Assembly (NCBI GenBank): GCA_016776605.1
Contig: JADHTB010000010.1
Coordinates: 8,727 to 72,726 of the forward strand
DNA length: 64,000 nt
From: Alphaproteobacteria bacterium
Lineage (GTDB): Bacteria; Pseudomonadota; Alphaproteobacteria; GCA-2731375
Direction: 5' to 3'
Shown piece after piece: positions 2,245 through 62,680 of the stretch (position 1 is the stretch's first letter; each line of letters opens with the position of its first letter). Both the position numbers and the translations under genes were made by a program. The notes below the pieces were generated by a model that saw only the letters and a list, made by a program, of their open reading frames with translations, searched no databases and was not told where the DNA came from.

Positions 2245-3363
2245 TTACAGGCGCGCCAATACCGTCTCACCGAATTGGCTGATGAAGTCATGGGTGATGG
2301 GCAGATCCGGCGCGCCGATTTGCGGGCTGACCACCACCCGGTCTATCCGTGGATCGGCAAGCAGCGCGGCGATCCGCATATGTACCTCGTCAGGCGTACC
2401 AGCAACCGCGTACCGGTTGATAAGCCGCTCGGGCACAAGAGCGGCGTGCGGCGGCATGGTTTGCGCATGGGCGAACATGTCGTAGTCGTGATGCAGACGT
2501 TCCACGGCCTCCCGGTCCTGACCCTCGAGCCGTGACGGGTCCGTCATACGCAGCACCGCCGCCACCCGGGCCCGCACCTGATCGTGCGCCCGCTGGGTAT
2601 CACGGTCCAGGCCCACATAGATCCAGGCAGTGGTCTGCACGCTGCCCGGTGCGCGGCCGGCGTCCTTTAATCCCTGATCTACCAGTTCCATGCCTTGTTC
2701 GATGAGATCGAGCGCGGAACCTTGCAGCAAGATGACGCCATCGGCCATGCCGGCAGCGGCGCGGGTCAATCGCGGACCGGTCGCGGCTACGTGTAACGGC
2801 ACCGGGGCGGGCTGCCCAAGCCAGGTTATGGCCCCTTCGGCGCCGGTTTCAAAGCGCGCGGTCTGCCCATCGAGCAGCTGGCGCACGGTCCCGACGTAGT
2901 CGGCCAGTTCCGCAATGGGTGCCGGTAACTGGCCGATATTGCGCAGCGCCGAATGGCCCACGGAAATTCCCGCCATGGCCCGCCCATCGGACAGCTCGTT
3001 CAGGGTTGCCAGCGCGCTGGCGGTAACGCTGGGGTGCCGGGTGCGCGGTACGGTGACCCCGGTGGCCAGCCTTAACCGCGTGGTCGCGGTGGCACAGGCT
3101 GCCAGCGTTACATACAGCTCGCGGCAGATAAGCTGCGTGTCTGTCAGCCAGATGCTCTCGAAACCGACCTGCTCGGCCAGCCGGGCATGGCTGACAGTGG
3201 TTTGCACCCGCTCCGTGCCCCATAGGGCCAAGCCGACTGGTTTTCTCTGCGACGTACCTGCGTCAATTTCGCTCACGCGTGGTCCTCCCCAAGGTGTGTG
3301 TGGCAGGTTAACTGTATCAGACTCGCAGGGATTCTCTGACGCCGGGGGCGCCCGGCCCAGCAA
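2245..3363 (-). CDS. LLM-class (luciferase-like) flavin-dependent oxidoreductase
   Basis: Similar to bacterial luciferase-like monooxygenases over most of its length. The track ORF starts with TTG; the true start may be an internal GTG near 3275. My base-level reading around 3298-3303 does not reproduce the track frame, so the 5' end is uncertain. Confidence 0.7.
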   Translation of the reverse strand: MLGRAPPASENPCESDTVNLPHTPWGGPRVSEIDAGTSQRKPVGLALWGTERVQTTVSHARLAEQVGFESIWLTDTQLICRELYVTLAACATATTRLRLATGVTVPRTRHPSVTASALATLNELSDGRAMAGISVGHSALRNIGQLPAPIAELADYVGTVRQLLDGQTARFETGAEGAITWLGQPAPVPLHVAATGPRLTRAAAGMADGVILLQGSALDLIEQGMELVDQGLKDAGRAPGSVQTTAWIYVGLDRDTQRAHDQVRARVAAVLRMTDPSRLEGQDREAVERLHHDYDMFAHAQTMPPHAALVPERLINRYAVAGTPDEVHMRIAALLADPRIDRVVVSPQIGAPDLPITHDFISQFGETVLARL

Positions 3364-3438
3364 AATTGATCTGTTCGTCTTTCAGGCCGCGCCCTAAGTG
3401 CGCTAAGATGCCGGTAACGAGTCAATTTGGAGGCAAAA

Positions 3439-5169
3439 ATGAGCAACGACATTTATACGGCCCTGTGGCCGCGCGGCGAAAAAACCGTGGCGATCGCGCC
3501 CCTGGCGCCGCGCCTGGATACCCTGGAAGGCAAGACCGTGGCCTTCATGTGGGACTACCTGTTCCGGGGTGACGAGATATTCCCGGTTCTGGAAGCCGAG
3601 CTGTCCGCCGCCTATCCGGACATGAAATTCGTTGGCTACACCACCTTTGGCTCCACCCACGGTTCGGAAGAGGGACGAATTCTGGCCGATCTGCCCACCA
3701 CCCTGGCCGATAACAAGGTTGATGCCATAATCTCCGGCATGGGCTGTTGAGGCAGCTGTACCCCCGCCGTGTTGCGGGCATCAGCTGCCGCGGAAGCCGC
3801 CGGCATCCCTTCCTCCTCTCTGGTCTGCGATGGCTTTTTGGGCCAGGGCGCAACCACGGCGGTGGGTTTGGGCCTGCCGAACCTGCCCATGGCCAAGGTG
3901 CCGGGCCATGTGGATACGCAAACCGATAACGAACTGCGCGAGAATCTGATTTCGGTCACCGTAAAGGCGGTGATCGAAAACCTGACCGCCGCCCCCGCGG
4001 CGGCGGTGATGATCCCGGAACCGGGACCACAGGACGTGGTGATGGAGGGCAGTTTTGAAGAGATCAACCGCTTCTTCTATGAAAACGGCTGGTCCGACGG
4101 CTTGCCCATCGTGCCGCCGACGCGGGCCAAGATCGAAAGCTTCCTGGCCTTCACCGATCTGCCCAACGATCATGTAATCGGTAAAATGCCGCCCGACAAC
4201 CGCCAGGCCACGGTCTGGAATGTCGCCGTCAACGGCGTCATGGCGGGCTGCCGGCCACAATACATGCCGGTTCTGGTGGCCTTGGCCGAGGCCATGGCCG
4301 ATCCCGGCTATGGCGTCGAGCATTCCGGCAACACGCCGGGCGCGGAAACCCTGATCACCATCAATGGCCCCATCATCAAGGACCTGGAATTCAATTATGA
4401 ACAGGGCGCCCTGCGCGATGGCTTTCAGGCCAACACCTCCATCGGCCGCTGGTGGCGGTTGTATCTGCGCAATGTGGCGGGCTTTCTGCTGCATCAGAAC
4501 GACAAGGGTACCTTCGGCAACACCTGGCGCGTGGTTCTGGCGGAGAACGAGGATGTGCTCGCGAAAATCGGCTGGCCGCCCCATTCGGCTGATTTTGGTC
4601 ATGCCCGGGGCGACAACGCCGTCACCATCTCGCGCTTCACGGGGGGCGATGTCATCGCCTCGGTCTATGGGCAGAAACCAGAGGATATGCTGCCATATCT
4701 GGCCGATGCCCTGATCAGCCAGACCGGCTGGCAGTTGATCTTTACGGTCGGCATGGCCGATGGCAGCTATACCCCGTTGCTGGTGCTATCACCCATCCTG
4801 GCCGAAACCATGGCCAAGGCCGGCTGGTCCAAGGACGATGTGCGGCAATGGCTGTTTGAAAACGCCCGCATCCCGGCCTCGAAGTTCGAACAATATATTG
4901 TCGAGTTCACCAACTTCTATTCCGGCGGACGCTCCATGTTCGAACTGGCCCAGTTGGGCAAGGCGAACGAGCTGTATGGCCTGTCCAAGGATCCGGACCG
5001 CCTGGTGCCCATCGTCTGCGACCCCATGGACATTCAGATTGCGGTCAGTGGCGATCCGGGGCGGACCAACGCCCAGGTGTTCTCGCACAATGGTATTCTG
5101 GGCTTTCCCACGGCGCGGGCGATCCGCCTGCCCAATGACTGGAAGAACAAGTTGGCCAATGCCGGATGA
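3439..5169 (+). CDS. Putative selenoprotein: an N-terminal UGSC-type domain (about 107 aa) with an in-frame TGA (selenocysteine) at 3748-3750 inside the motif GMG-C-U-G-S-C, fused in frame to a domain of about 470 aa of unknown function
   Basis: The track ORFs 3427..3750 and 3769..5169 are in the same frame (both coordinates are 1 mod 3) and are separated only by one TGA. The codons after the TGA read GGC AGC TGT (G-S-C), giving CUGSC. A SECIS-like hairpin follows directly. The ATG at 3439 is preceded by a GGAGG Shine-Dalgarno sequence 7 nt upstream. Confidence 0.6.
3751..3789 (+). other. SECIS-like RNA hairpin immediately 3' of the in-frame UGA
   Basis: GGCAGCTG (3751-3758) pairs with CAGCTGCC (3782-3789). 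An inner stem CCCGC/GCGGG closes a 6-nt apical loop CGUGUU. Total length is about 39 nt starting at +1 after the UGA, matching the layout of bacterial SECIS elements. Confidence 0.5.
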
Positions 5170-6402
5170 GTGGTGCCGGATGAGTGGGGCAGAGTGAACG
5201 ACGGACAATCTCTGTGGATCCTGCTGCCCACCGGACAGCGGGCATCGGGCGAATGGATTGACGACACCCTGCACAGCCGGGCTGACGAGCAAGGCTTGTT
5301 GGGCCGGCTGACCCAGGTCGCCGCCTTTCCGCGGCAACGGGTTGAAGTGGTGCGTGGGCCAAATGCCGAGGCCCGGGTGAACGAAACGTTCTACCGCCGG
5401 GGCTGGACCGACGGCCTGCCCATCGTCGTCCCCAGCATGGCCCGCGTGGACGCCATGCTGCGGGCCGGCGGGCGGCCGCGCAACATGGTCATGGGCGAGG
5501 CCGAGCCGTTGAAGGGCGTGGTAACGGTTGAAAAGGTCGCCATCAACGCGGTCATGGCCGGCTGCGAGGACGCGCATATGCCCTTCGTCCTGGCCGCCGC
5601 CGAGGCCTTGTTGGAGCCAGCATTCAATCTGCGCGGCGTCCAGACCACGGACGAAAACGTCACGCCGTTGCTGATGCTGTCGGGGCCGGCGGCAAAAACC
5701 ATGCACATGAACAGCCGGTTTGGCGCCCTGGGGCCCGGCTGGCGGGCCAATGCCGCCATTGGCCGGGCGGTGCGGCTGATCATGCACAACCTGGGTGGTG
5801 GCTGGCCGGCGGCGGTGGCCTTTGCCGGCCTGGGCCAGCCGGGCCGCTATACCCTGTGCCTGGCCGAGGATGAGGAGTTCAATCCCTGGGAAAGCCTGCG
5901 CGAGGAGCTGGGCTTTGCCGTGGAAGACAACGTATTGGTGGTGCAACGGGCCGAAAGCGTGGTCAACGTAACCGGCGGCCTGAACGATCTGGCCTCTGTC
6001 ATGGCCTCGGCCACGTCCGCTTTTTCCCGTCTGCATGGGGGCACGGTCGCCGTCGTCCTGGCGCCCTATGTGGCGAAATTACTGGCGGAGGAAGGTAAAT
6101 CGAAGGCCGACGTGAAGGCCTATTTGCACGAACACAGCCGGGCCCCGGCGGCGGAGTTCGAAAAATCCTGGCTGCCGGCCCGTCTGGCCGGCAAGACGAA
6201 ATTCCCCCGCTGGGTGAAAGAGGGCGTCCAGGCGGGCTGGGTACCGGCGGTGGAAAAGCCCGACGACATCACCGTCATCGTCGCGGGCGGCGATATTCCG
6301 ATTCCCCAATGCGCCTATATGCCAACCTGGGGTTTCCCCGCCTGCCGCATCGCCAAGAAAATTGATTTACCTCAGGGGTGGGACCCCTCGCCGGAGATTT
6401 AA
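5170..6402 (+). CDS. Paralogue of the C-terminal domain of the upstream selenoprotein (uncharacterised family); it lacks the UGSC domain
   Basis: Shared motifs with the upstream gene: FYxxGW(S/T)DGLPIV(P/V)P, N(G/A)VMAGC, and a collinear remainder. The start abuts the upstream stop (5169/5170), suggesting translational coupling. The start codon is uncertain (GTG). Confidence 0.6.
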   Translation: MVPDEWGRVNDGQSLWILLPTGQRASGEWIDDTLHSRADEQGLLGRLTQVAAFPRQRVEVVRGPNAEARVNETFYRRGWTDGLPIVVPSMARVDAMLRAGGRPRNMVMGEAEPLKGVVTVEKVAINAVMAGCEDAHMPFVLAAAEALLEPAFNLRGVQTTDENVTPLLMLSGPAAKTMHMNSRFGALGPGWRANAAIGRAVRLIMHNLGGGWPAAVAFAGLGQPGRYTLCLAEDEEFNPWESLREELGFAVEDNVLVVQRAESVVNVTGGLNDLASVMASATSAFSRLHGGTVAVVLAPYVAKLLAEEGKSKADVKAYLHEHSRAPAAEFEKSWLPARLAGKTKFPRWVKEGVQAGWVPAVEKPDDITVIVAGGDIPIPQCAYMPTWGFPACRIAKKIDLPQGWDPSPEI

Positions 6403-7317
6403 ATGCCCAGAGCACCCCGTACAAGCCATCAGTTGATCGTTATTGGCGCCGGCGTCGCCGGCATGGCGGCGGCGACCGAGGCCGCCCGTTGCGGCCTGAA
6501 AACCGCACTGTTCGATGACGGTCTGCTGGGCGGATTAATCACCAATGTGGGCGCCGTGCACGGCCATCCGGGGCTGGCTGAAACAACCGGCGCTGATCTG
6601 GTCAACACCATGCTGGGGGAGGCCCTGGAGGCGGAGGTGGACTACCAGCCTGGCGCCGTCACGGAACTGGCGGCCATGAGTGATCATTGGCGCCTGCCGG
6701 GCAATGACGTTACAGCACTTCGGGTCATACTTGCCACCGGCGCGGACCTGCGCACCCTGGACGTACCGGGCGAGGCAAGATTGATGGGTCGGGGCGTCTC
6801 GCAATGCGCCTTTTGTGATGGCGGATTGTACAAGGGCAAGGATGTCGCCGTGGTGGGGGGTGGCGACGGCGCCTTTCAGGAAGCCCTGCATCTGGCTCAA
6901 CTATGCGCCAACGTCACCATGATCCTGCGCGGCCGCAAACCCCGCGCTCGGCCAACCTTTGCCAGACAGGCCGCCGACCTGGGCAACATGCATTTCCGCT
7001 GGCAGACGGACGTGCGGGAAATTATAGGCGATGGCGGGGTCGATGCCGTTCGCCTGCATGATCAGGACGGCGGCGAAGAAGAAATTTTACCCATCGCCGC
7101 CATTTTCCCCTTCATCGGCCTGGCACCCCGCACCGCGCTGGCGCCGGCGGCTGCCAAACGGGACGACGATGGCGGCTTGATCGTCGATGCCGATATGCAG
7201 ACGGACCAGCCCGGTCTGTACGCCATAGGCGCGGCCCGCGCTGGTCACGGCGGCCAGGTGGCCCACGCCATCGCCGATGCCAAATCAGCGGCCCAGGGGG
7301 CCTGGCGCTCTATTTAA
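6403..7317 (+). CDS. Thioredoxin-reductase-like FAD/NAD(P)H-dependent disulfide oxidoreductase
   Basis: N-terminal GxGxxG motif (VIGAGVAGMAAA). CAFCDG redox-active motif positioned as the TrxB CATCDG motif. A second dinucleotide-binding motif VAVVGGGDGAFQEA. ATG at 6403 directly follows the upstream TAA. Confidence 0.75.
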   Translation: MPRAPRTSHQLIVIGAGVAGMAAATEAARCGLKTALFDDGLLGGLITNVGAVHGHPGLAETTGADLVNTMLGEALEAEVDYQPGAVTELAAMSDHWRLPGNDVTALRVILATGADLRTLDVPGEARLMGRGVSQCAFCDGGLYKGKDVAVVGGGDGAFQEALHLAQLCANVTMILRGRKPRARPTFARQAADLGNMHFRWQTDVREIIGDGGVDAVRLHDQDGGEEEILPIAAIFPFIGLAPRTALAPAAAKRDDDGGLIVDADMQTDQPGLYAIGAARAGHGGQVAHAIADAKSAAQGAWRSI

Positions 7318-7324
7318 AGCAGGT

Positions 7325-8641
7325 TTAGGTCTGCGCCTGGGCCCGCTCCAACAGATCAAAGCCATGGGGCACATTGGGCCGGGCCTTGGCGCGGGACTCC
7401 AGCAGCGCCGCTGCCTCGCCGCCCCGGTTGGTGCGCAACAGGGTATCCAGCCAGGTCTGCACGAACAGATCGCGCTGGGCGTGGCTGCCACCGATTTCCT
7501 GCAAACGCGGCGTCGCGGCCGCCAGATCCGCATAGGCGCCCTGGTAATCGCCACGGGCGTGGGCGGCCAGGCCACGGGCGGCGGGCACAGCCACCTCCAC
7601 CCAGGCCGGGCGCACCAGATCGGGTGCAGTCGCCGCATGGGCCGTCATGCTGGCCAGCATTTTATCGGCCTGCGCGTTGCGTCCGGCGCGGGCCAAGGTA
7701 TAGAGGTAATGCAGATCCAGGAACGGCTGCACATGTTCCCTCGTGCGGCCCTGCACATGATCAGCCAGGTCGGTCCAGCGCGCGCCCACGTCGATGCCGC
7801 GCAGTTCCATGCGCCACAGCAATGAGGCGGCATTGGCCTGATCCTGGCTGTAGGTCTTGTCCAGGCCCCAGACGAATTCATCGTGGATCTGGCGCACCCG
7901 CCGGGCATCGCCGAAATCCAGATGGAACAGCGCCGTATGCCACCAATTATGCCCCAGCATGAAGGAATTGCATTCCGCCCAGGTGTCGGACAGGCCTTCC
8001 ATCCAGGCCACGCCCTCGCCGATCCGGCCCTGGGTCTCCATGACATGGGCCACCGCATGATGGGCCCAGGGGTCGGCGCGGTTGATCTCCACCGCCCGGC
8101 GTCCCGCCGCCTCCGCCGCCCGCGGATCGTGGGTCTGCTCCAAGCCAAAGGCCAGGCAGCCGTACAGATAGCCGTTCTCTTCGTTGGCCGGCAGGATCTT
8201 TTGGCAAACCGCCAGCATTTTATCGGACCAGCCCAGATTGAAATAATGGTACTGCGCCAGCTTCATGGCGAATAGATCCCGTGGCCAACGCTCGGTGATC
8301 TGTTCCAGGATCGCCAGTGCCGTCGCCATATCGCCCGCCACCCAGGCTTCCGTGGCCTGGAACCACAGCGTTTCCCGTGCTTCGGCCACCGCCAGGGCGG
8401 GGCGGCAGCGGTCCAGATAGGGCCGGGCCAGGCTGGGTGATTGCCCCGCCTCCATCCACATCATCAGGGATGCCGCCAGAGCGCCGGCCATGACGCAGCC
8501 GGGATCAGCCTCCGCCGCCTCTATGATCGGCTGATAATCGGTGCCATAGGCCAGGGCCGTGGTGACAAAGGCATTAATGGCCGCAATATTTTCGGGCCGG
8601 TCGGTGGCGACCGCCAAGCCCTGGCCGTCGGTGAGCATCAA
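7325..8641 (-). CDS. Tetratricopeptide-repeat protein (TTC38-like family)
   Basis: 438 aa, all-helical, with repeated W/Y/A-rich TPR-like modules; resembles the bacterial TTC38 family. Overlaps the upstream M81 peptidase gene by 4 nt. Confidence 0.55.
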   Translation of the reverse strand: MMLTDGQGLAVATDRPENIAAINAFVTTALAYGTDYQPIIEAAEADPGCVMAGALAASLMMWMEAGQSPSLARPYLDRCRPALAVAEARETLWFQATEAWVAGDMATALAILEQITERWPRDLFAMKLAQYHYFNLGWSDKMLAVCQKILPANEENGYLYGCLAFGLEQTHDPRAAEAAGRRAVEINRADPWAHHAVAHVMETQGRIGEGVAWMEGLSDTWAECNSFMLGHNWWHTALFHLDFGDARRVRQIHDEFVWGLDKTYSQDQANAASLLWRMELRGIDVGARWTDLADHVQGRTREHVQPFLDLHYLYTLARAGRNAQADKMLASMTAHAATAPDLVRPAWVEVAVPAARGLAAHARGDYQGAYADLAAATPRLQEIGGSHAQRDLFVQTWLDTLLRTNRGGEAAALLESRAKARPNVPHGFDLLERAQAQT

Positions 8642-41649: not shown

Positions 41650-42762
41650 TCAGGCCGTGGCCGCGATCACGGTGTCGGCAGTGTCGCCGGCACGGTCCGT
41701 GGCTGCCGCGGGCTGGGCCCAGACCGCGATGGGGCCGCTGGTCGGCAGGGCGCGATCGTAGCTGTATTCCCAGTTCAATGGATCCGAAAACAGTTTCCGC
41801 AAAAGCTGATTATTGCTGCTGTGGCCGGTACATTGACCCGCGAAATGCGCCAACATCGGCCCGCCGGCAAGGTAAAAATCACCGACGCAGTCCAATACCT
41901 TGTGGCGGACGAATTCGTCGTCATAGCGCAGACCGCCTTCGTTCATGATTTCGTCGTCCCGGCCAACCACCACGACATTGTCCAACGAACCGCCTTGGCC
42001 CAAACCAAGATCCATTAAGCGGTTAACCTCATGCTCGAAACCAAACGTACGGGCACGGCAAATATCTCGTTTGAAACCGCCGTTATGCAGATCGTAAAAG
42101 CCGGATTTTTCCACAATCGCGGGACTGTCGAAATCAATCTCCAGCGAAACCGAGAACCCATCCGAGGGCACCAATGCGGCCCGCCGTTTGCCGTCCTCGA
42201 TCTCTACCCGGCGCAGAACGCGGATCCAACGGCGGCGCGCCTGCTGCGGCGCCAGACCTGCACATTCGATCAAAAACACGAATGGCGCCGAAGAGCCATC
42301 CATGATGGGCACTTCCGGGCCATCCAATTCAACCCGGACATTATCGATGCCGCACCCGGCCAGCGCCGCCATCAGATGTTCAACAGTGCCCACCTTCACC
42401 CCGGCGTCATTTTGCACCGTGGTTGACATGACCGTGTCGCTGACCGTATCCCAGCCTGCCCGGACGTCGGCGGCACCCGGCGCGGCATCCGCACCAGTAT
42501 CCCCGCCAATATCCCCGGGAGCATCTTTAGCTATCCCTAAGGCAGCTGCACGAATATCGGTGCGGTGAAAGACGATACCCGTATCAGCCGGCGCCGGACG
42601 CAGACACATGGCGACCTTAATGCCGCTGTGCAGGCCCACGCCTGAACAGTTGATCGCATTCTTCAGCGTATGCTGCTGCCTGAGCGTATGCTGCTTTGGG
42701 TCCACGTCTTCAATCCGCTTCAAACTTAACGACCTATTCAAATTTAACGTCAAACTTAACAA
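41650..42762 (-). CDS. lpxC: UDP-3-O-acyl-N-acetylglucosamine deacetylase with a low-complexity insertion and a C-terminal extension
   Basis: GVGLHSG, GTVEHL and ARTFGF LpxC motifs in the correct order. There is an extra Gly/Asp/Ala-rich insert of about 20 aa after HRTDI and a C-terminal tail of about 25 aa. The start is uncertain and probably lies downstream of 42762. Confidence 0.85.
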   Translation of the reverse strand: MLSLTLNLNRSLSLKRIEDVDPKQHTLRQQHTLKNAINCSGVGLHSGIKVAMCLRPAPADTGIVFHRTDIRAAALGIAKDAPGDIGGDTGADAAPGAADVRAGWDTVSDTVMSTTVQNDAGVKVGTVEHLMAALAGCGIDNVRVELDGPEVPIMDGSSAPFVFLIECAGLAPQQARRRWIRVLRRVEIEDGKRRAALVPSDGFSVSLEIDFDSPAIVEKSGFYDLHNGGFKRDICRARTFGFEHEVNRLMDLGLGQGGSLDNVVVVGRDDEIMNEGGLRYDDEFVRHKVLDCVGDFYLAGGPMLAHFAGQCTGHSSNNQLLRKLFSDPLNWEYSYDRALPTSGPIAVWAQPAAATDRAGDTADTVIAATA

Positions 42763-42764
42763 CT

Positions 42765-42854
42765 TGTCCGAACGTTTGCACTTGTCCGAATGTTTGCACT
42801 TCTCTGAATGTTTGCACTTCTCTGAATGTTTGCACTTCTCTGAACGTTTTCACT
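42765..42854. repeat. Five 18-bp direct tandem repeats (TGTCCGAATGTTTGCACT variants) in the ftsZ-lpxC intergenic region, immediately 5' of lpxC
   Basis: Units at 42765, 42783, 42801, 42819 and 42837. They are preceded by 2 x CAAACTTAAC. The apparent coding potential on the plus strand is a repeat artefact. Confidence 0.85.
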
Positions 42855-43049
42855 TCGCTTCGACACCCGCATCCACCAGTCGGCTTCTTCGAGCAAAGGC
42901 GCCAAATCGAATTATCCTTAAAAGAGAACACCTTGGGTCAGGTTATTAGCAACCCATCCCAAGATGCTCAAATCAAACTTTATTACATTTCATTACGGCG
43001 CCAATCCGGCGAAACATAGTTAACCCAGTGGGCTGACGCCGCCCATGCC

Positions 43050-44810
43050 TTAGTTAGCCTGCCGGCGTAGAAATGACGGAATTTCAAGTAGATCCTCCTC
43101 GGTTTGCGGCGGCGCCAGGGGCCGGGTCGGCTCTAAGGGCGCCGTCTCCGGCGCGGAGGCCAGGGTTTGTCCGCCGGCCGCCGGCGTAGCGGGTGGCGTG
43201 GTCTCCATAGTGACATCGGGGGCTGTCTCCCGGCGCATTTTTTCCGGAGTGGGCGATTCGAACCTGGGTTGCACCTGGGCCGGTGGCGCCGCCGATGCCA
43301 ATTCGGGCGCTTCTTTACGCCGGAACAGGGAAAAGCCCCGGGCCTTACGCTTGGCCGGCTGATCCGTTGGGTTCAGGGCTTCTGCTTCCGCCAGGGGGTC
43401 GGGTTGACGCAGCAAGCTACGGTCCCTCTCCGGCCGGCTGGCGGGCGGCGCGATAAAAGGTCCGTCTTCTACACTGACATCGACCGTCTGTTGCGGCCGC
43501 GGCGCCACGGGCTCGGGCTCCGCCTGGGGTGGTTTGGGCGCCGGGACCCGCTGGCCGAAGGTCAAGGGCAAGGGCAAGGCCGGTGGTGCTTCCATCGCGG
43601 CTGGCGGCACCTCCGTAATGGTTTCGGGTACGGCCTCGGCGATGGTTTGCACCGCCGCGGCGACCGCCGCCGCGGCCTCGGCTTCCGTTTCAGCCGGGCT
43701 TTCGGCAGCCGGCAGGGGAGACAATTCAGGCGCGGCGACCTCTGGTGCGGCCTCCATAGGCGCCACGGCCGTCTCGCTCGAGATTGGGCGTCCGGCCACG
43801 GCGGCCAGGCGTGGCGACGTGATCAGCGGGCGCTGAGCACCTTCTTCAATCTCAATTCCAGTTGCCACGACAGAGACCCGCATGCGCCCATTCAGGCTGT
43901 CATCCAGCGCCGATCCAACGATAATGTTCGCATTCGGGTCGACTTCCTGACGGACCCGGTTGGCCGCCTCGTCTACCTCGTACAGGGTCAGGTCCATGCC
44001 ACCGGTGATGTTGATTAAGACGCCACGGGCTCCCTGCATCGAGACATCATCAAGCAACGGATTCGAAATCGCTGCCTCGGCCGATTCGATGGCGCGGTTT
44101 TCGCCTTCCGCCTCGCCCGTGCCCATCATGGCTTTACCCATCTCCGCCATAACCGTTCTGACGTCGGCGAAGTCCAGATTGATCAGGCCGGGCAGGACCA
44201 TCAGATCGGTGATGCCACGGACACCGGAATGCAACACGTCGTCGGCCATGGAGAAGGCATCGGCGAAGGTGGTTTTTTCGTTGGCGATCCGGAACAAATT
44301 CTGGTTGGGAATAACAATCAGGGTATCGACGAAGGATTGCAGCTCTTCAATGCCGCGTTCCGCCGACAGCAGACGCTGTCCGCCTTCGAATTGAAATGGC
44401 TTGGTCACCACGCCCACGGTAAGAATACCCTGGGCCCGCAAGGCCTCGGCGATGACCGGCGCGGCGCCGGTGCCGGTGCCGCCGCCCATGCCAGCAGTGA
44501 TGAAAGCCATATGCGTGCCTGTCATATGATCGAGAATCTGCCCGATGGCTTCTTCCGCCGCCGCGCGGCCAACGTCCGGCCGGGCACCACAACCCAGGCC
44601 CTGGGTGATGCTCGCGCCCAACTGGATGCGCCGTTCCGCCTTGCTATGGGACAAGGCTTGGGAATCCGTATTGGCGACGATAAAATCGACCCCCTCCAGG
44701 CCGGAGGAAATCATATTGTTGACAGCGTTGCCGCCGGCACCGCCGACGCCAATCACCACAATACGGGGTTTCAGTTCAGTCAATTGCGGGGCATTTAGGT
44801 TGATGGTCAT
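43050..44810 (-). CDS. ftsZ: Cell division protein FtsZ (long Pro/Ala-rich C-terminal linker)
   Basis: GGGTGTG tubulin signature and the N-terminus MTINLNAPQ...[17 protein letters not shown]. Confidence 0.97.
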
Positions 44811-44976
44811 GGCTCAGGTCTCCTTTACCTATTGGCGCCGGTGCGCAATGCGATACTGCGTCGGTTGGTTAAGATGGGTTTGGTTTCGGTGAACGCTATT
44901 AAAACAGGGTCTGCGACACGATTGGCTGACGGCATCTTCTTCAGGACCGCCGGTATTGCTGGTGAAATCCGCATGC

Positions 44977-46227
44977 TTAAAAATTCTCCTTGAACCAGCG
45001 GCCCAGGCGGTGAATTCGCCCCGCCCCCGTGCCGGCTTCGCTAATGGGTTCCATGTGTTGCTGGCCGGGTTCGTGCTGGGCATAGGCTAACAACCCCGCG
45101 GCGGAGGCGAAGGCCGGCCCTTCGGTCACTTCCGCCAGGCCATGGATGCCCAGGGGGCGGCCAACCCGAACCTGTTTGTCCAATACGCGGGCCGCGTGTT
45201 CGCGCACCCCGGTCAATAGAGCACTACCACCCGTCAACACCGCGCGCCGCCCAGCGGTCCGCGCCAGGCCCGAGGCCTGCAGACGATCACGCACCAGTTC
45301 CAGGGTTTCCTCAATCCGGGGCTGGATGATGCCAACCAACATTGAGCGTGGAATTTGTTGCACGGCATCGGCGCCGCTTTCCCCGACCCGGGGCACGCTG
45401 ACCATGGCGTGTTCATCATCCGGGCCCGCCACCGCACTGCCATGCAGCGTCTTCAAGCGTTCCGCATGGGCGCTGGACGTGGACAGACCGCGCGCAATAT
45501 CATTGGTGACATGATTGCCGCCAACGGGCACCTGGTCCGTATGGATCATATGACCGTCGTAAAAGATGGCGACATCGGTGCTGCCACCACCCATATCGAT
45601 CAAGGTCACGCCCAGATCCATTTCGTCCTCGACCAGTGTCGACAGACCCGAGGCGTAGGGGGCCACCACCAGAGCGGCGATTTCCAGATGGCAGCGTTCC
45701 GCCAACAGCTTCAAATTCCGCAGCGGTCCCATAGCGGCGGATACCACATGCAGACGCAATCCCAGGCGCGAGCCAAACATCCCGCGCGGCTCGCGATAGC
45801 CTGGCGTCCCGTCGATGGAATAGCCGGTAGGAATAGCATTTAATATTTCCCGGCCCTCGCTACTGCGTCGAGCCAGCAGATGGGCCTGGGCCAGAGCGCG
45901 TTTCAGATCGCGTTCGCCGATCTCATGACCTGCGATATCAGTTTCCACATCGATCAGGCGCGAGGCGGGCCGCCCACCGGAAAAACTCAACAGCACGCGG
46001 TCGACGCGTTCCTTGGCCATACGCTCGGCTGCATCCACCGCCCCACGCACGGCCTCTTCGGCCGCGTCCATATCGATCACCGTGCCCGCGCGCATACCCT
46101 TGGCGACTTGGTGCCCTATACCGATGACCCGCATGCCGCCGGCACCATCGGACCGGGCGATAAAGCAACAAACTTTGGTGCTGCCGATATCCAGGGCGGT
46201 GATCAGACCATTTTTGCCGACAGCCAT
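44977..46227 (-). CDS. ftsA: Cell division protein FtsA
   Basis: Actin-fold ATPase with FtsA-family similarity throughout. Confidence 0.95.
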   Translation of the reverse strand: MAVGKNGLITALDIGSTKVCCFIARSDGAGGMRVIGIGHQVAKGMRAGTVIDMDAAEEAVRGAVDAAERMAKERVDRVLLSFSGGRPASRLIDVETDIAGHEIGERDLKRALAQAHLLARRSSEGREILNAIPTGYSIDGTPGYREPRGMFGSRLGLRLHVVSAAMGPLRNLKLLAERCHLEIAALVVAPYASGLSTLVEDEMDLGVTLIDMGGGSTDVAIFYDGHMIHTDQVPVGGNHVTNDIARGLSTSSAHAERLKTLHGSAVAGPDDEHAMVSVPRVGESGADAVQQIPRSMLVGIIQPRIEETLELVRDRLQASGLARTAGRRAVLTGGSALLTGVREHAARVLDKQVRVGRPLGIHGLAEVTEGPAFASAAGLLAYAQHEPGQQHMEPISEAGTGAGRIHRLGRWFKENF

Positions 46228-46228
46228 A

Positions 46229-47146
46229 TCAGGTGTCCTTCCCGCTTTTATGTTTTCTGGCCGCCGCTTCCGGTGTCAGACGCAAAACCAGGCGATCGGG
46301 CAGACGCAGGTCGATGGCCACGACATCGCGTTCAAAAATACGCTGTTCGGCGACCAGCTCGGCTAACCGGCTCCAGGCATCCGCGGCCTGAACCTCGGGC
46401 AAATGCACTTTGATGCCGTTCTTCAAACTTATGTCCCAACGACGCGAACCAATCCGTACAGCCGCCCGAACCTGGGCAAACAACGCCGGCTTTTGCGACA
46501 GCATGTCGATCAGGGCAGCGGCCGTGGCTGGCGCGTCCAGGCCCACCACGACGGGCAGATAGGCAAACCGCGCAAGGTTGTTCCGGGTGATCGGATTTCC
46601 GCCGCGATCGATTAGGACATGGCGGCCCTCGTACTGCCAGAGAGCCAGTGCCTTGCGCTCACTCAGATGCACCACGATGGTGTCGGGCAACCGGCGTTCG
46701 ACCCGGGCCGTCTCCACCCAGCCCAGCCGCAGCAATTTTTCCCGCGCCTGGACCGGGTCAAAGGCCAGGATCGATTGACCGCTCAAAACCCCCATGGCGC
46801 GCAGTACCTCGGGCTTGCTGGTTTCGGCCCGCCCGGTGACAAAGACATGCCGCACCGTCAGGCCCGCCCGCGCGATCTGCCGGTTGCTCCAGCTGGTCAG
46901 ATTGGCACTTGCCGTTGTTATTACCTGGCCAACAATGCCGCTTTGATGGATCTGCCAGGCCGCGATACCCGACCCGGCTAGCATGACGGCGAACAGCGAC
47001 AGCACGATCAGGCGCCGCCGCGGCGACCAACGCTGGGGACGTCCGCGCCCAGGACGCCGGCGTGCCGAAACAGCCTTACCTTGGCCGCTCTTGCCCTGGC
47101 TGGCCCCGCCGTCTGCCGGCCTGAAAAATTGCATCAGCGCGCGCAT
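46229..47146 (-). CDS. ftsQ: Cell division protein FtsQ
   Basis: Arg-rich N-terminus, a transmembrane segment, and POTRA plus FtsQ beta domains. The start is uncertain and overlaps ddl. Confidence 0.85.
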   Translation of the reverse strand: MRALMQFFRPADGGASQGKSGQGKAVSARRRPGRGRPQRWSPRRRLIVLSLFAVMLAGSGIAAWQIHQSGIVGQVITTASANLTSWSNRQIARAGLTVRHVFVTGRAETSKPEVLRAMGVLSGQSILAFDPVQAREKLLRLGWVETARVERRLPDTIVVHLSERKALALWQYEGRHVLIDRGGNPITRNNLARFAYLPVVVGLDAPATAAALIDMLSQKPALFAQVRAAVRIGSRRWDISLKNGIKVHLPEVQAADAWSRLAELVAEQRIFERDVVAIDLRLPDRLVLRLTPEAAARKHKSGKDT

Positions 47147-48045
47147 CCGGCGTCCTCCACCATCCAGCGCACCAGGGCGGCAAAGTCGATATCGCAATGG
47201 GCGGCAAGTTCCGGCACCAACGAGGTCTGCGTCATGCCCGGCTGGGTATTGACCTCCAACATGTAGAGTGCACCCGGCTCTCCGTTAGTATCGTCATAGC
47301 GGAAGTCAGCCCGGCTAACCCCGCGGCAGCCCAGGGCAATATGGGCCTGTTCGGATAGGGCCAGGGCCTGGGCGTAGCTTTCCGCATGGATTGGCGCCGG
47401 TATCAGATGCTGGGATCCGCCCGTGTCATATTTCGCCGCATAATCATAGAAACCGCTGTCGGTCCTGATTTCGATCACCCCAAGGGCCCGGCCATCCATC
47501 ACCGCGACGGTCAATTCCCGTCCCGGAATGAAACGTTCCGCCAGAACCGCATCGCCGAACTGCCAGTCCGCGCCAATGGGCGGGTTGTTATCGCCGCCGC
47601 GCACGACCCGAACGCCAAAAGTGGAGCCTTCGCCGGGTGGCTTGACCACATAGGGACGGGGCAGCGGATCTTTTGCATTAACCGCCGCCACCGTTGTCAG
47701 ATGGCCTTCAGCACAAGGAATACCGTGGGCCCGGAAAACCGCCAGCGCCGATGGTTTGTGCATGGCCACCGCCGAGGCGCGAACGCCGGAATGGGTATAG
47801 GGCAGGCCCATAAACTCCAACAGGCCCTGGACACAGCCATCTTCGCCCCAACGGCCATGCAGCGCGTTGAATACGACCTCGGGCTTCAGTTCCGTCAGGC
47901 GTTGGGCCAGATCGGGACCAGCATCAATTTCACTAACCCGATAGCCGGCAGCACGCAGCCCCACGGCACAGGCCGCGCCGGTATCCAGCGAAACCGGGCG
48001 CTCGGCCGATCTACCCCCCATCAGCACCGCGACGTGAGTGTTCAT
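47134..48045 (-). CDS. ddl: D-alanine--D-alanine ligase
   Basis: ATP-grasp enzyme with Ddl family motifs; 303 aa. Confidence 0.95.
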   Translation of the reverse strand: MNTHVAVLMGGRSAERPVSLDTGAACAVGLRAAGYRVSEIDAGPDLAQRLTELKPEVVFNALHGRWGEDGCVQGLLEFMGLPYTHSGVRASAVAMHKPSALAVFRAHGIPCAEGHLTTVAAVNAKDPLPRPYVVKPPGEGSTFGVRVVRGGDNNPPIGADWQFGDAVLAERFIPGRELTVAVMDGRALGVIEIRTDSGFYDYAAKYDTGGSQHLIPAPIHAESYAQALALSEQAHIALGCRGVSRADFRYDDTNGEPGALYMLEVNTQPGMTQTSLVPELAAHCDIDFAALVRWMVEDAGCAR

Positions 48046-49073
48046 GGCGCCACCTCGGTCAAGATCGGTTCGGGGGCGCTAACAGATGCATTAACAGGTG
48101 CGTTATCTGGGGCATGCTCACCAATGCGGCGAATTTCCCATTGCAGCATGACGCCGCTACGCGCGTGAACCCGGCGGCGGACTTCTTCGCCCAGGGCTTC
48201 CAGATCGGCAGCGGTGGCATCGCCGGTATTGATCAGGAAATTGCAATGCAGCTCCGACACCATGGCGCCGCCGCGCACCAGGCCCCGGCAGCCTGCCCCG
48301 TCGATCAGTTCCCAGGCGCTATTGCCTTCGGCGCTGCCGCCGGCAGGACGGCCGTCGCCAAAATCGCCGCTTACCGGATTTTTAAAAGTGCTGCCGCCGG
48401 TGCGGGTATTGACCGGCTGGCTATCCTTACGGGCCTGACGCACTTCCTGCATGCGGGCCGAAATCTCTTCCCGGTCACCATGCTCGCCCTTAAATTGAGC
48501 GGCGGTGAAGATCCAGTCCTCCGGCGCGCCGCAATGGCGATAGCTCAAGTCCAGTTCATCCACCGTTACCCGGTGCAGCGTTCCAGCCCCATCCACGGCT
48601 TCGGCCCAGACCAGCACGTCGCGAATGGCCCGGCCATAGGCGCCCGCATTCATGCGCAAACCGCCACCTAGCGTACCTGGAATGCCACGCATGAACTCAA
48701 ACCCGACCAGTCCGGCATCGCGGCAAATCCGGGCCAGATTGACATCCAAAGCGCCGGCCCCGGCGGTGATCGTTGTGCCATCTACCGCGATCTCGGAAAA
48801 TGATTTGTCCAGCCGAATGACCACACCGCGCACCCCGCCATCCCGGATCAGCAGGTTCGAACCAAGGCCCAGTACGGTACGGGGAATGTCGTCGGGGCAG
48901 GCCGCCAGGAATGCCGCCAGATCAGCGGCATCGGCGGGACGGAAGACCACATCGGCCGGCCCTCCCACCCGGAACCAGGTGCTGCCGGACAGATCCACGT
49001 TCTCGATATAACGCCCCCGCACCGGCGGCAGGCGGGACAGCAAGGTGAAGTGAGGTTGCCGGGAGGCCATCAT
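48042..49073 (-). CDS. murB: UDP-N-acetylenolpyruvoylglucosamine reductase
   Basis: FAD-binding PCMH domain and MurB C-terminal domain. Confidence 0.93.
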
Positions 49074-50506
49074 GGGGCATCTCCCATCGCCTTTTGCGCC
49101 AGCAGCAAGGGGGCCAGTTGCGCCGGCAAAGCGTTGGCCCAGGCGCTAATGGTACCGGCGCCCAGGCAGACCACCATATCGCCGGCACGTATATGGGGGG
49201 TGATCAAGGCCGCCAAATCTTCCGGCTTATCCAATGCCAGCACCCGGCGGTGGCCGCGCGCCGTCAGGCCCTGGATCAGGGCGTCTCGGTTCATGCCCTC
49301 GATTGGCGCCTCGCCGGCGGCATGCACATGCGCCACAGCCACCACGTGGGCGTCATTAAAGCAGGTACAGAAATCTTCGAACAAATCGCGCAACCGGCTG
49401 AAACGGTGGGGCTGAACCACGGCGATGACATGGCCATCACAGGCGGCCCGGGCAGCCTTCAACACGGCGGCGATTTCGACAGGGTGATGGCCATAATCGT
49501 CAATCACCGAAACACCACCCACCTCGCCGGTTTTGGTGAAGCGCCGCTTGACCCCGGAGAAACCGGCCAAGCCGTCAAGCAGGGCATTATCGGCAAGCTT
49601 CATTTCCAGACCGACAGCAATCGCGGCCAGGGCATTCAAGACGTTGTGTTCCCCATGCATGGGCAAGTGAAAGCCTTGCACCAGACGGGTTTCGTCGCTG
49701 CTCCGATCGGTTAGGACAACAGCGAACCGCATGCCATCCGGGCCGGCACTGACATCAACGGCGCGCACCGCGGCCTGGGGGCTGAAGCCATAAGTCACGA
49801 CGCGCCGGTCCGAGATCCGGCCAATCAGGGCCTGCACCTCTGGGTGATCCAAACACATCACCGCAAAGCCATAGAAGGGGATGTTTTCGATGAAACTTTG
49901 AAAAGCCGCCCGCTCGACATCGAAGTCGCCATAAAAATCCAGATGCTCGGGGTCTATATTGGTGACCACGGCGATGGTTGCGGGCAGCTTGGTGAAACTG
50001 CCGTCGCTTTCGTCTGCTTCCACCACCATCCAATCGCCGGCGCCCAACCTGGCGTTCGTACCATAGGCATTGATGATGCCGCCGTTAATCACCGTCGGGT
50101 CATAGTTGGCCTGATCCAGGATCGCCGCGATCATCGATGTTGTGGTGGTCTTGCCATGGGTGCCGCCCACGGCGATGGACCATTTCAGGCGCATCAGTTC
50201 GGCCAGCATCTCGGCCCGGCGCACGACGGGGATCATAGCGTCCCGCGCCGCCAGAACTTCCGGATTGTCGGGCTGCACGGCAGACGAAATCACCACCACC
50301 TGTGCCTCGCCCAGATTTTCCGCCACATGGCCGATTTTCGCCTCGATGCCCAAGGCGCGCAGGCGGCTCACATTGGCGCCTTCCGCCTGGTCGCTGCCCT
50401 GGACCCGATAGCCCAGATTATGCATGACCTCGGCAATGCCGCTCATGCCGATACCGCCGATGCCGACGAAATGAATGACTCCGATATCCAATGGCAATGC
50501 CGTCAT
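49070..50506 (-). CDS. murC: UDP-N-acetylmuramate--L-alanine ligase
   Basis: N-terminus [12 protein letters not shown] and Mur ligase domains. Confidence 0.95.
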
Positions 50507-51633
50507 GCCGCCGCCCTCCGGCGCACGCCATTGGCGGCCACGGCCAAGACCAGATCGGCCAATAGAACCGCAGCATTCGGCTGCGCGCGGCCGCGTGCGG
50601 CCTGGGCCGCTGCGTGCAGTAAATCCGGCGCCTGCATCAGCTTGGCCAGAAGAGCCGCCAGGACGGGCACGGTCAGGTCGGCCTCGGGCAGCAGCCAGGC
50701 GCCACCGACGGCACTTAAAACCCCGGCGTTGCTGGTTTGATGATCATCGGTGGCATGGGCATAGGGCACCAACACGCTGGGCCGGCCCGCCGCCGCCAAT
50801 TCGCTGACGGTGCCGGCGCCGCTGCGGGCGATGACCAGATGCGCGGCGGCCAGACGGGCCGGCAAATCGGCAAAAAATGCGGCGGTTTCCGCCTCTATTC
50901 CCGCCTCGGCATAGATTTGGCGCACCGCCTCCAGGTCCTCTTCCCGGCATTGCTGCACCACGCGCAGGCGCTGACGCTGGTCTGGCGCCAAGGCCAGCAG
51001 GGTCCGCGGGATGACCTCGCTAAACCTGCGGGCACCCTGGCTGCCACCAAAAATCAGTAATTGGAACGGCCCATCCGGCGCCGGCGCCAGATAGGCCTGT
51101 TCGGCCAGCGCTAATATGTCGGCGCGAACAGGATTGCCGGTGACCAGTTTTGGCTCGCGGCAGGCGCGTGGCAGTCCCTTTGTCGCGGGGAATGAAGTCG
51201 CGATGGCGTCAACCCGGCGGGCAATCAGGCGGTTGACCCGGCCCAGTACCGCATTCTGCTCATGCACCGCGCGGGGCACGGATAGGGATATCGCCGCCAG
51301 CATGGTGGGCAGGGAAGGATAGCCGCCAAAGCCGACGACCGCCGCCGGATCGACCCGGCGGATCAGACGCCGCGCCTGAATGGTGCCAAGGGCGATGCGC
51401 GCCAATGCCATCACCTTGCCCAGCCCGGCCCGCCCGGACGGCGTGGCGGAAGTAATACGGTGGACGGTCCGGCCCGGAAAACGGCTGTTGAAATCATCGC
51501 CCCGCCCGTCGGTCACGATGTCCACCGCCCGGCCGCGCCGGTCAAGCTCAGCCGCCAGGGCCTGTGCCGGGAAAACATGGCCGCCGGTTCCCCCTGCCGC
51601 CAACATGATGGGTCCCATGGCCGTCCTGTTCAT
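50503..51633 (-). CDS. murG: UDP-GlcNAc:undecaprenyl-PP-MurNAc-pentapeptide GlcNAc transferase
   Basis: GT28 family; N-terminal [10 protein letters not shown] motif. Confidence 0.95.
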
Positions 51634-54196: not shown

Positions 54197-54199
54197 GAC

Positions 54200-55288: not shown

Positions 55289-55297
55289 CCCTGCCCC

Positions 55298-58200: not shown

Positions 58201-58204
58201 GAGT

Positions 58205-59968: not shown

Positions 59969-60408
59969 GGCTGCCTCCCGCTACTGGCCAGGATAATCCG
60001 CCCGGTGGGGCGCGGCTTGACCGGCTTCCAACCCGGCAGGGGCGGTGCGACCGACTGTTCCCGGCCATTATTTCGAACCGCCTCGTCCCTGGCGCCATCG
60101 TTCCCTGGTTTGCCAGCATCGCGAATGGCGTTGGCATTCAGGGGTAGACTGGCCAGTCCGCCGATCTGTTCCGGCGTCAGGGGCGCAAGGGCAAGATAAC
60201 GCCCGGCCAGGGTCTGTACCCGGCTGGGCTGACTTAGGAAACTCCATTCCGCCGCCAGGATGCGGCTGTTGTGCCGGTTCTCCTCCAACTGAGCGGTTGC
60301 CACGGACAGGCGCCGCTCCAACCGCTGCACCTCAGATTTCAGGCGGTACAAGCCCAGGGAGATGGCCAGCACCAGCGACAGTACAACAATGGTGATGGGC
60401 CACCTCAT
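59965..60408 (-). CDS. ftsL: Cell division protein FtsL (alphaproteobacterial type)
   Basis: Small bitopic protein with a transmembrane segment and coiled coil; lies between rsmH and ftsI. Confidence 0.8.
   Translation of the reverse strand: MRWPITIVVLSLVLAISLGLYRLKSEVQRLERRLSVATAQLEENRHNSRILAAEWSFLSQPSRVQTLAGRYLALAPLTPEQIGGLASLPLNANAIRDAGKPGNDGARDEAVRNNGREQSVAPPLPGWKPVKPRPTGRIILASSGRQP

Positions 60409-62242: not shown

Positions 62243-62680
<438 letters not shown>

Follow-up and report, generated by a model that had tools for sequence, protein, structure and literature searches.

Gene organisation of the locus

The locus lies on the forward strand of the window, by which we mean the whole 64-kb stretch of DNA that was analysed, and carries the following features.

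3429..3433, + strand: Shine-Dalgarno-like GGAGG, 5 nt upstream of ATG 3439, from reading of the sequence
3439..5169, + strand: single CDS of a predicted UGSC-X fusion selenoprotein, 576 codons (575 standard residues plus Sec104) with a TGA stop, from one frame with one internal TGA
3463..3987, + strand: UGSC domain, residues 9-183, with a predicted Rossmann/flavodoxin-like alpha/beta fold, from a Pfam PF24696 match and structure prediction
3748..3750, + strand: UGA, predicted selenocysteine (Sec) codon for residue 104 in the motif G-C-U-G-S-C, from TGA conserved in Sec forms and Cys in homologues
3751..3789, + strand: SECIS-like hairpin directly 3' of the UGA, from folding, conservation and covariation
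4006..5166, + strand: C-terminal domain X, about 385 aa, residues ~190-576, uncharacterised
4249..4251, + strand: Cys271 codon in the motif NGVMAGC, an invariant column in alignments A2 and A5, X' included
5170..6402, + strand: X', a paralogue of domain X of about 400 aa without a UGSC domain, from alignment A5 and translation
6403..7317, + strand: ORF3, thioredoxin-reductase-like FAD/NAD(P)H flavoprotein of 304 aa, from a Pfam Pyr_redox_2 match (4.6e-36)

The ORF listing gives two ORFs at the 5' end of this locus, 3427..3750 (+; 107 aa, TTG start) and 3769..5169 (+; 466 aa, GTG start), which an earlier note on this DNA had described as sharing a frame and being split solely by the TGA at 3748-3750. 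Listing and translation bear this out: 3427-5169 contains a single internal stop, this TGA, set between AIISGMGC and GSCTPAVLRAS, after which the frame stays open as far as the stop at 5167-5169. The CUGSC motif and the frame open to 5169 that the same note had read are likewise present in the translation (GMG-C-U-G-S-C-TPAV). GC3 is equal on the two sides of the TGA (0.757 before, 0.784 after). The true start is probably the ATG at 3439, which has GGAGG 5 nt before it and from whose first residue the homologues align. Residues 1-575 of the product are matched in 80 related loci (tblastn), and its alignment with the full-length Cys homologues (578-607 aa) runs from end to end. A second recoding event at TGA 5167-5169 was considered, as ORF2 (X', 5170-6402) is in frame and an 861-aa database entry (P0020) joins both; we rejected it because Cys-form homologues stop there and because the ORF2 match often begins in another frame in related loci, for instance L002, L003 and L009, where its offset from the start of the ORF1 match is 1741 nt, not a multiple of 3. 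A scan of 3200-7600 for promoters and terminators gave none above background.

The fusion gene heads a conserved module in which UGSC-X is followed by X' (5170-6402) and then by the TrxR-like flavoprotein (6403-7317). X' is 34% identical to X in alignment A5 and about 30% by tblastn, probably starts with GTG at 5170, 5173 or 5194, and has an orthologue directly downstream of the fusion gene in 52 of 73 related loci; no X' was found downstream of Cys-form genes at the three readable loci (L081, L089 and the place of P0097). ORF3 carries a redox CxxC (GVSQ-C135-A-F-C138-DG, nt 6805-6816) and scores 231.7 bits against TIGR01292 (TrxB), under the 343-bit cutoff of that model, so it resembles TrxR without being the housekeeping TrxB equivalog. 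A TrxR-like gene adjoins 4 of 4 Cys-form genes, and a homologue is found in 40/80 Sec-form loci; roughly half of the Sec-form loci lack it, so another reductant may serve these. Transporters and binding proteins (TctC, TctB, SBP_bac_5, MFS, ABC) are frequent neighbours.

Conservation of the UGA codon and the adjacent hairpin

The same codon is TGA in all 80 of the best related loci, far more than chance would give; these loci span a range of species and phyla (Alpha-, Beta- and Gammaproteobacteria, Acidimicrobiia, Dehalococcoidia, Methylomirabilota, Dormibacterota, Nitrospinota and Myxococcota), and the protein is conserved on both sides of it. The earlier note had proposed that homologues ending before the motif, with no conserved downstream frame, would speak against recoding; these conserved flanks are the contrary. 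Across the 81 Sec-form genes, TGA at the residue-104 codon, the U-G-S-C motif and a Cys at position -1 to Sec are each kept in 81/81, and the seven-codon stretch that separates the TGA from GTG 3769 encodes an invariant GSCTPAV. The homologues with Cys in place of Sec and no stop, for which the note had advised a search, were found: all 12 full-length homologues have Cys in the Sec column. In most Cys forms, position -1 is Ala.

Fold prediction downstream of the TGA, another check that had been suggested, yielded a SECIS-like hairpin at 3751-3789 (MFE -32.7 kcal/mol, z = -2.56). Its lower stem pairs 3751-3758 with 3782-3789, and its apical stem pairs CCCGC (3763-3767) with GCGGG (3774-3778) around the loop CGUGUU (3768-3773). 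The bSECIS consensus of Zhang & Gladyshev 2005 reportedly has an apical loop some 16-37 nt past the UGA with a G in the loop; here a stem-loop follows the UGA (some 15 nt downstream), its apical loop starts 17 nt past the codon and the second loop base is G, in agreement with that consensus. The apical stem-loop recurs in 80 related loci. Pairing reaches 90.5% compared with at most 61% in slid controls, and covariation consists of 12 double changes from G-C to A-U at a single pair at the base of the stem. The stem codons CCC, GCC, GTG and CGG (Pro, Ala, Val, Arg) are invariant in 81/81 Sec forms, and the Pro, Ala and Gly codons beside them show free synonymous variation; in three Cys-form genes the stem codons vary and the stem is gone. 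Stand-alone UGSC genes have a hairpin at the same position with another sequence. An Rfam scan of the hairpin region returned chance-level matches only, with no fitting model; Rfam presumably holds no generic bacterial SECIS model.

The UGSC domain and domain X

The UGSC domain matches PF24696 with 98.6 bits (cutoff 25) over residues 9-183, corresponding to profile positions 3-171 of 172, and it therefore straddles the Sec. The note had drawn the boundary elsewhere, with a 107-aa UGSC part followed by a second domain of about 470 aa; in the revised layout the Sec sits in mid-domain and X comprises about 385 aa. The structure was predicted for the closest Cys homologue (P0017), which is 59% identical to the window protein. 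In this model a beta-strand precedes the Sec position and the N-terminal end of a helix follows it, and the predicted fold is Rossmann/flavodoxin-like; the thioredoxin-like fold around the redox motif that had been proposed for UGSC in 2008 (PMC2398784) was not recovered by fold prediction and comparison. Against NCBIfam NF041046, the UGSC_fam equivalog that describes the short stand-alone protein, the window protein scores 46.4 bits, and since the cutoff is 125 bits it represents a divergent fused subfamily, related but distinct.

For domain X, no Pfam or NCBIfam family was found even at E <= 10, no PDB relative emerged from searches with an alignment profile against PDB sequences or from Foldseek against PDB, and no catalytic fold could be recognised in it. 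Besides one invariant Cys (C271) it has numerous Arg, Asn, His and Glu residues that are likewise invariant, a sequence pattern that looks like an active site, and Cys271 is a candidate partner of the Sec centre. Four stand-alone X genes were found, each directly preceded by a stand-alone UGSC selenoprotein gene (4/4). Short stand-alone UGSC proteins, the form in which the earlier note knew the family, thus exist, in the four cases examined beside a separate copy of X.

Predicted decoding of the UGA as selenocysteine

On these computational grounds, TGA 3748-3750 is almost certainly a real Sec codon in one 576-residue UGSC-family selenoprotein, decoded with the help of a SECIS element. This is the reading that the earlier note had put forward for the TGA and for the two ORFs as one gene, and it is supported by the Cys homologues, which are continuous, the SECIS-like hairpin and the Pfam match across the TGA.

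Two other readings of the codon have to be weighed against it. Automatic gene callers treat the locus as two genes, with the TGA ending a 103-aa protein and a 466-aa protein starting from GTG 3769, and databases hold many such split entries (102-107 aa and 466-468 aa, about 103 + 467 aa). That the two ORFs are in fact independent genes, or products of a pseudogene or a sequencing error, is barely credible given the TGA in 80/80 loci, the invariance of GSCTPAV in what would be a spacer between TGA and GTG 3769, the single Pfam domain that crosses the TGA, the continuity of the Cys-form homologues and a predicted UGSC fold that requires both halves. Only marginally more credible is that the UGA yields a standard residue (Trp, Cys or Gly) by readthrough or reassignment. 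An ordinary TGA stop ends 18 of the 44 other ORFs of the window, so the code is standard and an alternative genetic code can be discarded; moreover, the aligned residue is always Cys, as in a classic Sec/Cys pair, the hairpin conserved at SECIS distance reflects an RNA-level constraint found in Sec forms only, and UGSC is an established selenoprotein family (PMC2398784).

What speaks for a standard residue is that Sec machinery was not seen nearby: selA, selB, selD and tRNA-Sec were not found in the 64-kb window, which has no tRNA and whose ORFs were scanned over 1-41 kb. The ORFs at 43-60 kb are assigned from their sizes and order; the 41.6-61.4 kb region reads as a cell-wall/division cluster, in which profile matches comprise only LpxC (41650-42762) and RsmH (60405-61364). 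We infer that the host is able to insert Sec. The window also contains 167 same-frame ORF pairs split by TGA, a number expected at its GC content of 62%, and among them no pair other than 3427/3769 has a redox-like context that would make it a further selenoprotein candidate.

The fused architecture in public data

The UGSC-X gene is a member of a known, functionally uncharacterised family whose fused form is common in public data and not new. The earlier note had supposed that the fusion might be undescribed. However, the full-length fusion occurs in at least 582 loci of species-representative genomes, and of the 8000 database candidates that were scored, 3927 hit the full-length query at E <= 0.001, the best 120 being of the fusion type. 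Furthermore, Zhang & Gladyshev 2008 (PMC2398784) report UGSC fused to a conserved domain, 'Unknown_1', which is likely domain X. Some database fragments are already labelled 'UGSC family (seleno)protein' by NCBI. The gene reveals no new kind of genetic element. Its value lies partly in annotation: a 5' ORF ending at the motif had been taken as a sign of Sec mis-annotation, and gene callers routinely split genes of this family. Thousands of relatives are divided into two 'hypothetical' ORFs, and recognition of the Sec restores one 62-kDa protein.

According to PMC2398784, UGSC proteins rank within roughly the top five selenoprotein families by abundance in metagenomes from ocean and freshwater and are overwhelmingly Sec forms; in the GOS data the family has 255 Sec against 21 Cys members, an unusually high Sec/Cys ratio. 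A literature search found no experimental work on any UGSC-family member, and a 2026 review (PMC13188914) lists the function of UGSC as uncharacterised.

A proposed NAD(P)H-driven selenoenzyme system

We propose that NAD(P)H would reduce the FAD/CxxC flavoprotein encoded by ORF3, which in turn would reduce a selenenylsulfide of the UGSC domain, formed by U104 with C107 or C103. The resulting selenolate/thiol pair may act as the dedicated reductant of a catalytic site around C271 in domain X, and X' could be reduced in trans by the same pair. Domain X would then turn over a small-molecule substrate, probably an anionic one. This electron path, from NAD(P)H through the flavoprotein and the Sec/Cys centre to domain X, is drawn from gene adjacency and motifs only and stands at an even chance. 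The broader suggestion, that UGSC and X (fused or as neighbours) form with a dedicated TrxR-like flavoprotein a so far unrecognised NAD(P)H-driven selenoenzyme system, with an X fold that has no solved relative and a small-molecule substrate, is tentative and falls a little short of that. Taken as a whole, the explanation that combines the selenoprotein identity, the conserved module and a mechanism appears highly probable.

The roles of Sec and X could also be distributed differently. Sec may itself be the catalytic residue that attacks the substrate, as in proteins of the PrdB/GrdB or Msr type, with X binding the substrate or serving as a scaffold and the TrxR-like protein recycling Sec directly or via thioredoxin. 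The UxxC motif is of the same class as that of PrdB (PMC2398784), and the 255 to 21 predominance of Sec cited above suggests that Sec is kinetically important; the frequent lack of a TrxR-like gene at the locus is also in keeping with this assignment. Nevertheless, a small separate UGSC protein beside a stand-alone X is more typical of a redox carrier paired with its enzyme, and X brings an invariant Cys of its own along with a dense array of polar residues that do not vary, partly kept in X', which lacks a UGSC domain; we therefore consider a catalytic Sec rather unlikely. Less probable still, and by some way, is that the module is no reductase system, X being for instance structural, regulatory or transport-associated and the UGSC centre a redox sensor or a metal or metalloid site. 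This would fit an X with no detectable enzyme homologue and the frequent transporter and binding-protein genes (TctC, TctB, SBP_bac_5, MFS, ABC) nearby, but it sits poorly with a TrxR-like flavoprotein repeatedly adjacent to both Sec and Cys forms and with the resemblance of the invariant Cys, His, Arg, Asn and Glu of X to an active site. The pairing or fusion of UGSC with X, together with X', the TrxR-like neighbour, the Rossmann-like fold and the invariant Cys of X, makes the preferred selenoenzyme scheme testable by reconstitution.

Relation to known selenoprotein and reductase systems

The window protein shares with the UGSC family (PF24696; NF041046) the U-G-S-C motif, the alternation of Sec and Cys and a PF24696 match far over threshold, as well as the excess of Sec over Cys forms, the occurrence in aquatic bacteria and the reported fusion to a domain of uncharacterised function; it differs in lying far below the NF041046 cutoff and in its predicted Rossmann/flavodoxin-like rather than Trx-like fold. 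In glycine and D-proline reductases, the Sec redox proteins GrdA, GrdB and PrdB carry CxxU/UxxC motifs and depend for their recycling on a thioredoxin system from the same gene cluster. The Sec protein gene beside a TrxR-like gene resembles this arrangement, but the module here has no Trx gene, domain X is unrelated to GrdB, GrdC and PrdA, and instead of Clostridia the hosts here are proteobacterial MAGs, aerobic or marine. Nor did the UGSC domain show even a weak Pfam link to GrdB/PrdB, and neither GRDB nor any further Pfam family was matched in sequence.

Mammalian TrxR passes its electrons on through a vicinal Cys-Sec selenenylsulfide, and the tetrapeptide G-C-U-G of the window protein is identical to the C-terminal Gly-Cys-Sec-Gly of that enzyme. 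In contrast to mammalian TrxR, which has no homology to UGSC-X, the motif here is internal, at the strand-helix junction of a predicted Rossmann-like domain, with an extra Cys at +3, and the Ala that UGSC Cys forms mostly have at -1 sets them apart as well. ORF3 resembles low-Mr TrxB (TIGR01292) in its Pyr_redox_2 fold, its size of 304 aa and the position of its CxxC, and is encoded beside its presumed client, as AhpF is with AhpC; it differs in scoring below the TIGR01292 cutoff and in having the UGSC domain, not a thioredoxin-fold protein, as its presumed client.

A selenoprotein gene with an in-frame UGA

The computational analysis shows that the window carries a UGA/SECIS selenoprotein gene of the UGSC family. 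The ORF listing presents it as two pieces:

3427..3750, forward strand, first half of the gene, same frame as 3769..5169
3769..5169, forward strand, second half of the gene, same frame as 3427..3750

The earlier note had described these accurately as same-frame ORFs parted by one TGA. Translation of 3427-5169 meets a single internal stop, TGA 3748-3750, between ...AIISGMGC and GSCTPAVLRAS..., and the following stop in the frame lies at 5167-5169. The gene likely starts at ATG 3439, with GGAGG 5 nt before it, and comprises 576 codons; GC3 is 0.757 upstream of the TGA and 0.784 downstream.

When Cys is put in place of U, the translated sequence matches the Pfam UGSC family PF24696 over residues 9-183 (98.6 bits, cutoff 25), so codon 104, the TGA, falls within a single domain. 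Among 5.8 billion proteins searched, at least 3927 relatives were found. The best 120 of these are mostly entries of 466-468 aa starting 'MLRASA...', which correspond to the piece past the TGA, and include 12 full-length proteins of 578-607 aa. All 12 have Cys at the Sec column of the alignment, mainly as G-A-C-G-S-C. The N-terminal query retrieved the complementary fragments of 102-107 aa, mainly unnamed or called 'hypothetical protein'. When one genome was scanned for each GTDB species, a minimum of 582 loci proved to encode the full-length protein. The best 80 belong to Alphaproteobacteria, Burkholderiales, Gammaproteobacteria, Acidimicrobiia, Dehalococcoidia, Methylomirabilota, Dormibacterota, Nitrospinota and Myxococcota, the closest being marine Rhodospirillaceae-like MAGs (92-93% identity), and every one has TGA at the identical codon, inside [GA]-C-U-G-S-C-T-P-A-V. 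Since TGA also ends 18 of the 44 other ORFs in the window, the genetic code is standard.

A sequencing error at the TGA, which the earlier note had named as a way its reading could fail, is excluded, as are a pseudogene and two separate genes, by the shared TGA codon, the domain spanning it and the Cys of the full-length homologues. Together with the hairpin downstream, the same observations bear out the selenoprotein reading, and the gene is well supported as real.

A SECIS-like hairpin under synonymous constraint

Folding of 3745-3815 places a hairpin right behind the UGA (MFE -32.7 kcal/mol, z = -2.56), with the following elements:

3751-3758 with 3782-3789, forward strand, lower stem
CCCGC/GCGGG, forward strand, apical stem
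CGUGUU, forward strand, apical loop, beginning 17 nt past the UGA, second base G

We take the position of this loop and its second-base G to agree with the published bacterial SECIS consensus. The stem codons Pro CCC, Ala GCC, Val GTG and Arg CGG are invariant in all 81 Sec-form genes, those with TGA at the Sec codon. A control Pro codon 15 codons downstream varies among these genes (CCG 37, CCC 25, CCA 11, CCT 7), and Ala and Gly codons near the hairpin are equally variable. This synonymous-site constraint within the stem is the strongest point for the predicted SECIS, and we regard it as decisive. The same apical stem-loop recurs in related loci, and at its basal pair 12 of 40 sequences have A-U in place of G-C; pairing across the structure reaches 90.5%, compared with 23-61% in slid controls. 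Three Cys-form genes have lost the stem, and the same codons vary in them (CCC/CCA/CCG, GCG/GCC, CGT/CGC). Stand-alone UGSC genes have a hairpin of other sequence at equal distance. Rfam holds no model matching the hairpin region.

Domain architecture and family membership

An AlphaFold2 model was made of P0017, the full-length Cys homologue nearest to the window protein (59% identity; pLDDT 87.7, pTM 0.90). In this model, residues 1 to ~184 form a parallel alpha/beta/alpha domain, and the C-U/C-G-S-C motif sits between a beta-strand and a helix N-terminus. The predicted division is thus ~185 aa with Sec inside followed by ~385 aa, and the split into 107 aa and 470 aa suggested by the earlier note was wrong. 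The C-terminal domain X (~190-576; pLDDT 87.7 when modelled from the window sequence) is without a recognisable relative. It has a single invariant Cys, C271, in NGVMAGC, and many invariant polar residues, including H295, R326, D327, N332, R337, R340, N345, H352, R364 and E369.

Selenoproteins named 'UGSC-containing protein' make up an established family of uncharacterised function, represented by 255 Sec and 21 Cys sequences in the GOS survey (PMC2398784), and have also been reported in Hyphomonas neptunium and Olavius symbionts. The family was still uncharacterised in reviews of 2022 and 2026 (the latter PMC13188914), and our literature search found no functional paper on the family. The window protein clears the Pfam cutoff but falls short of that of the NCBIfam equivalog (46 bits, cutoff 125); it belongs to the broader UGSC family and to a fused subfamily. 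The fusion, which had been thought possibly undescribed, is not novel, given the number of loci encoding the full-length protein and some C-terminal fragments that NCBI already names 'UGSC family (seleno)protein'. The GOS study (PMC2398784) also described UGSC fused to a conserved domain, 'Unknown_1', which is likely to be domain X.

A module of UGSC-X, X' and a flavoprotein

Two genes follow the selenoprotein gene, and the three abut:

5170-6402, forward strand, X' (ORF2), paralogue of domain X (34% identity by alignment, ~30% by tblastn)
6403-7317, forward strand, thioredoxin-reductase (TrxR)-like flavoprotein (Pyr_redox_2 match), C135-A-F-C138

X' lacks a UGSC domain and retains the invariant Cys. 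In the flavoprotein, which scores 231.7 bits on TIGR01292 (cutoff 343), C135-A-F-C138 lies at the TrxB redox position. X' is downstream in 52 of 73 related loci and a TrxR-like gene is found in 40 of 80. In five Dehalococcoidia/Chloroflexi loci (L039, L047, L049, L051, L053) the TrxR-like gene comes straight after UGSC-X, with no X' between them; the core pair can thus do without this paralogue. The TrxR-like gene lies directly upstream of UGSC-X in two Gammaproteobacteria, and one of 305-319 aa adjoins the Cys-form gene in all four cases examined.

ORF2 shares the frame of the selenoprotein gene, parted from it by TGA 5167-5169 alone, and the two are joined without a break in one database entry (P0020, 861 aa). 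Because the frame relation is not kept in related loci and Cys-form homologues stop at the equivalent position, the TGA here most likely does end translation. The module also occurs in a MAG labelled 'Klebsiella pneumoniae' (L052, CAMDRJ010000017.1). Its N-terminal fragment cluster (P0200) and another whose name comes from a Burkholderiales MAG (P0184) match about equally well, which hints that the bin is mislabelled or chimeric.

In an exhaustive search with X' (E <= 1e-3), the matches fall into 4426 clusters at 50% identity. They comprise stand-alone proteins of ~350 aa, fusions of UGSC with X of 530-580 aa, Sec-truncated entries of 420-470 aa and tandem X-X proteins of ~710-740 aa. Four stand-alone X genes each have a stand-alone UGSC selenoprotein gene upstream, directly or with one gene between:

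L083, 3-2755, stand-alone UGSC with stand-alone X (~350 aa)
L085, 1029-2634, same pair
L086, 1084-2727, same pair
L087, 2-1462, same pair

These UGSC selenoproteins are ~185 aa long and have the motif G-[ND]-U-G-S-C; gene callers break them up at the TGA. From this adjacency it follows that UGSC and X are two parts of one system, of which the window gene is the fused version. At L086 a fused UGSC-X gene stands beside the split pair, and solute-binding genes (TctC, TctB or SBP_bac_5) often lie nearby.

Proposed mechanism

We give roughly even chances to a model in which reducing power passes from the flavoprotein through the UGSC Sec centre to domain X. In this scheme the TrxR-like flavoprotein would draw on NAD(P)H to reduce a selenenylsulfide in the UGSC domain, in which U104 is bonded to C107 or to its neighbour C103. 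The reduced Sec centre would then service an active site near C271 in domain X, and perhaps X' in trans; domain X would act on a substrate, probably anionic. The vicinal Cys seems to co-vary with Sec use: in the alignment, the residue just before Sec is Cys in every Sec form, giving G-C-U-G (3745-3750 in the window), and 10 of the 12 Cys forms have Ala there, as G-A-C-G-S-C. The C-terminal redox centre of mammalian TrxR is the tetrapeptide G-C-U-G, identical to that of the UGSC-X Sec forms. The main rival, which we consider possible but rather unlikely, gives Sec itself the role of catalytic nucleophile, as in PrdB/GrdB, and leaves substrate binding to domain X. Three points are of interest: domain X lacks a recognisable relative, UGSC and X are connected either through fusion or as neighbours, and the TrxR-like partner brings the long-uncharacterised function of this abundant aquatic family of selenoproteins within reach of experiment.

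Sec machinery and the remainder of the window

The conserved UGA and SECIS suggest that the host is Sec-competent. The 64-kb window contains no tRNA, and selA, selB and selD are absent among the ORFs scanned at 1-41 kb. Divergent from the selenoprotein operon lies a luciferase-like LLM-class (F420/FMN-type) oxidoreductase (2245-3363, reverse strand); its top NCBIfam matches, under cutoff, are methylene-H4MPT-reductase-like, and it is absent beside the module in most related loci. Family searches, and for the RNA a full-length match of 302.5 bits, identified the following:

41650-42762, reverse strand, LpxC
60405-61364, reverse strand, RsmH
62241-62671, reverse strand, RNase P RNA, bacterial class A

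The stretch 41650-61364 (reverse strand) looks like a cell-wall/division gene cluster, with LpxC and RsmH matched and the rest judged from ORF sizes and order.
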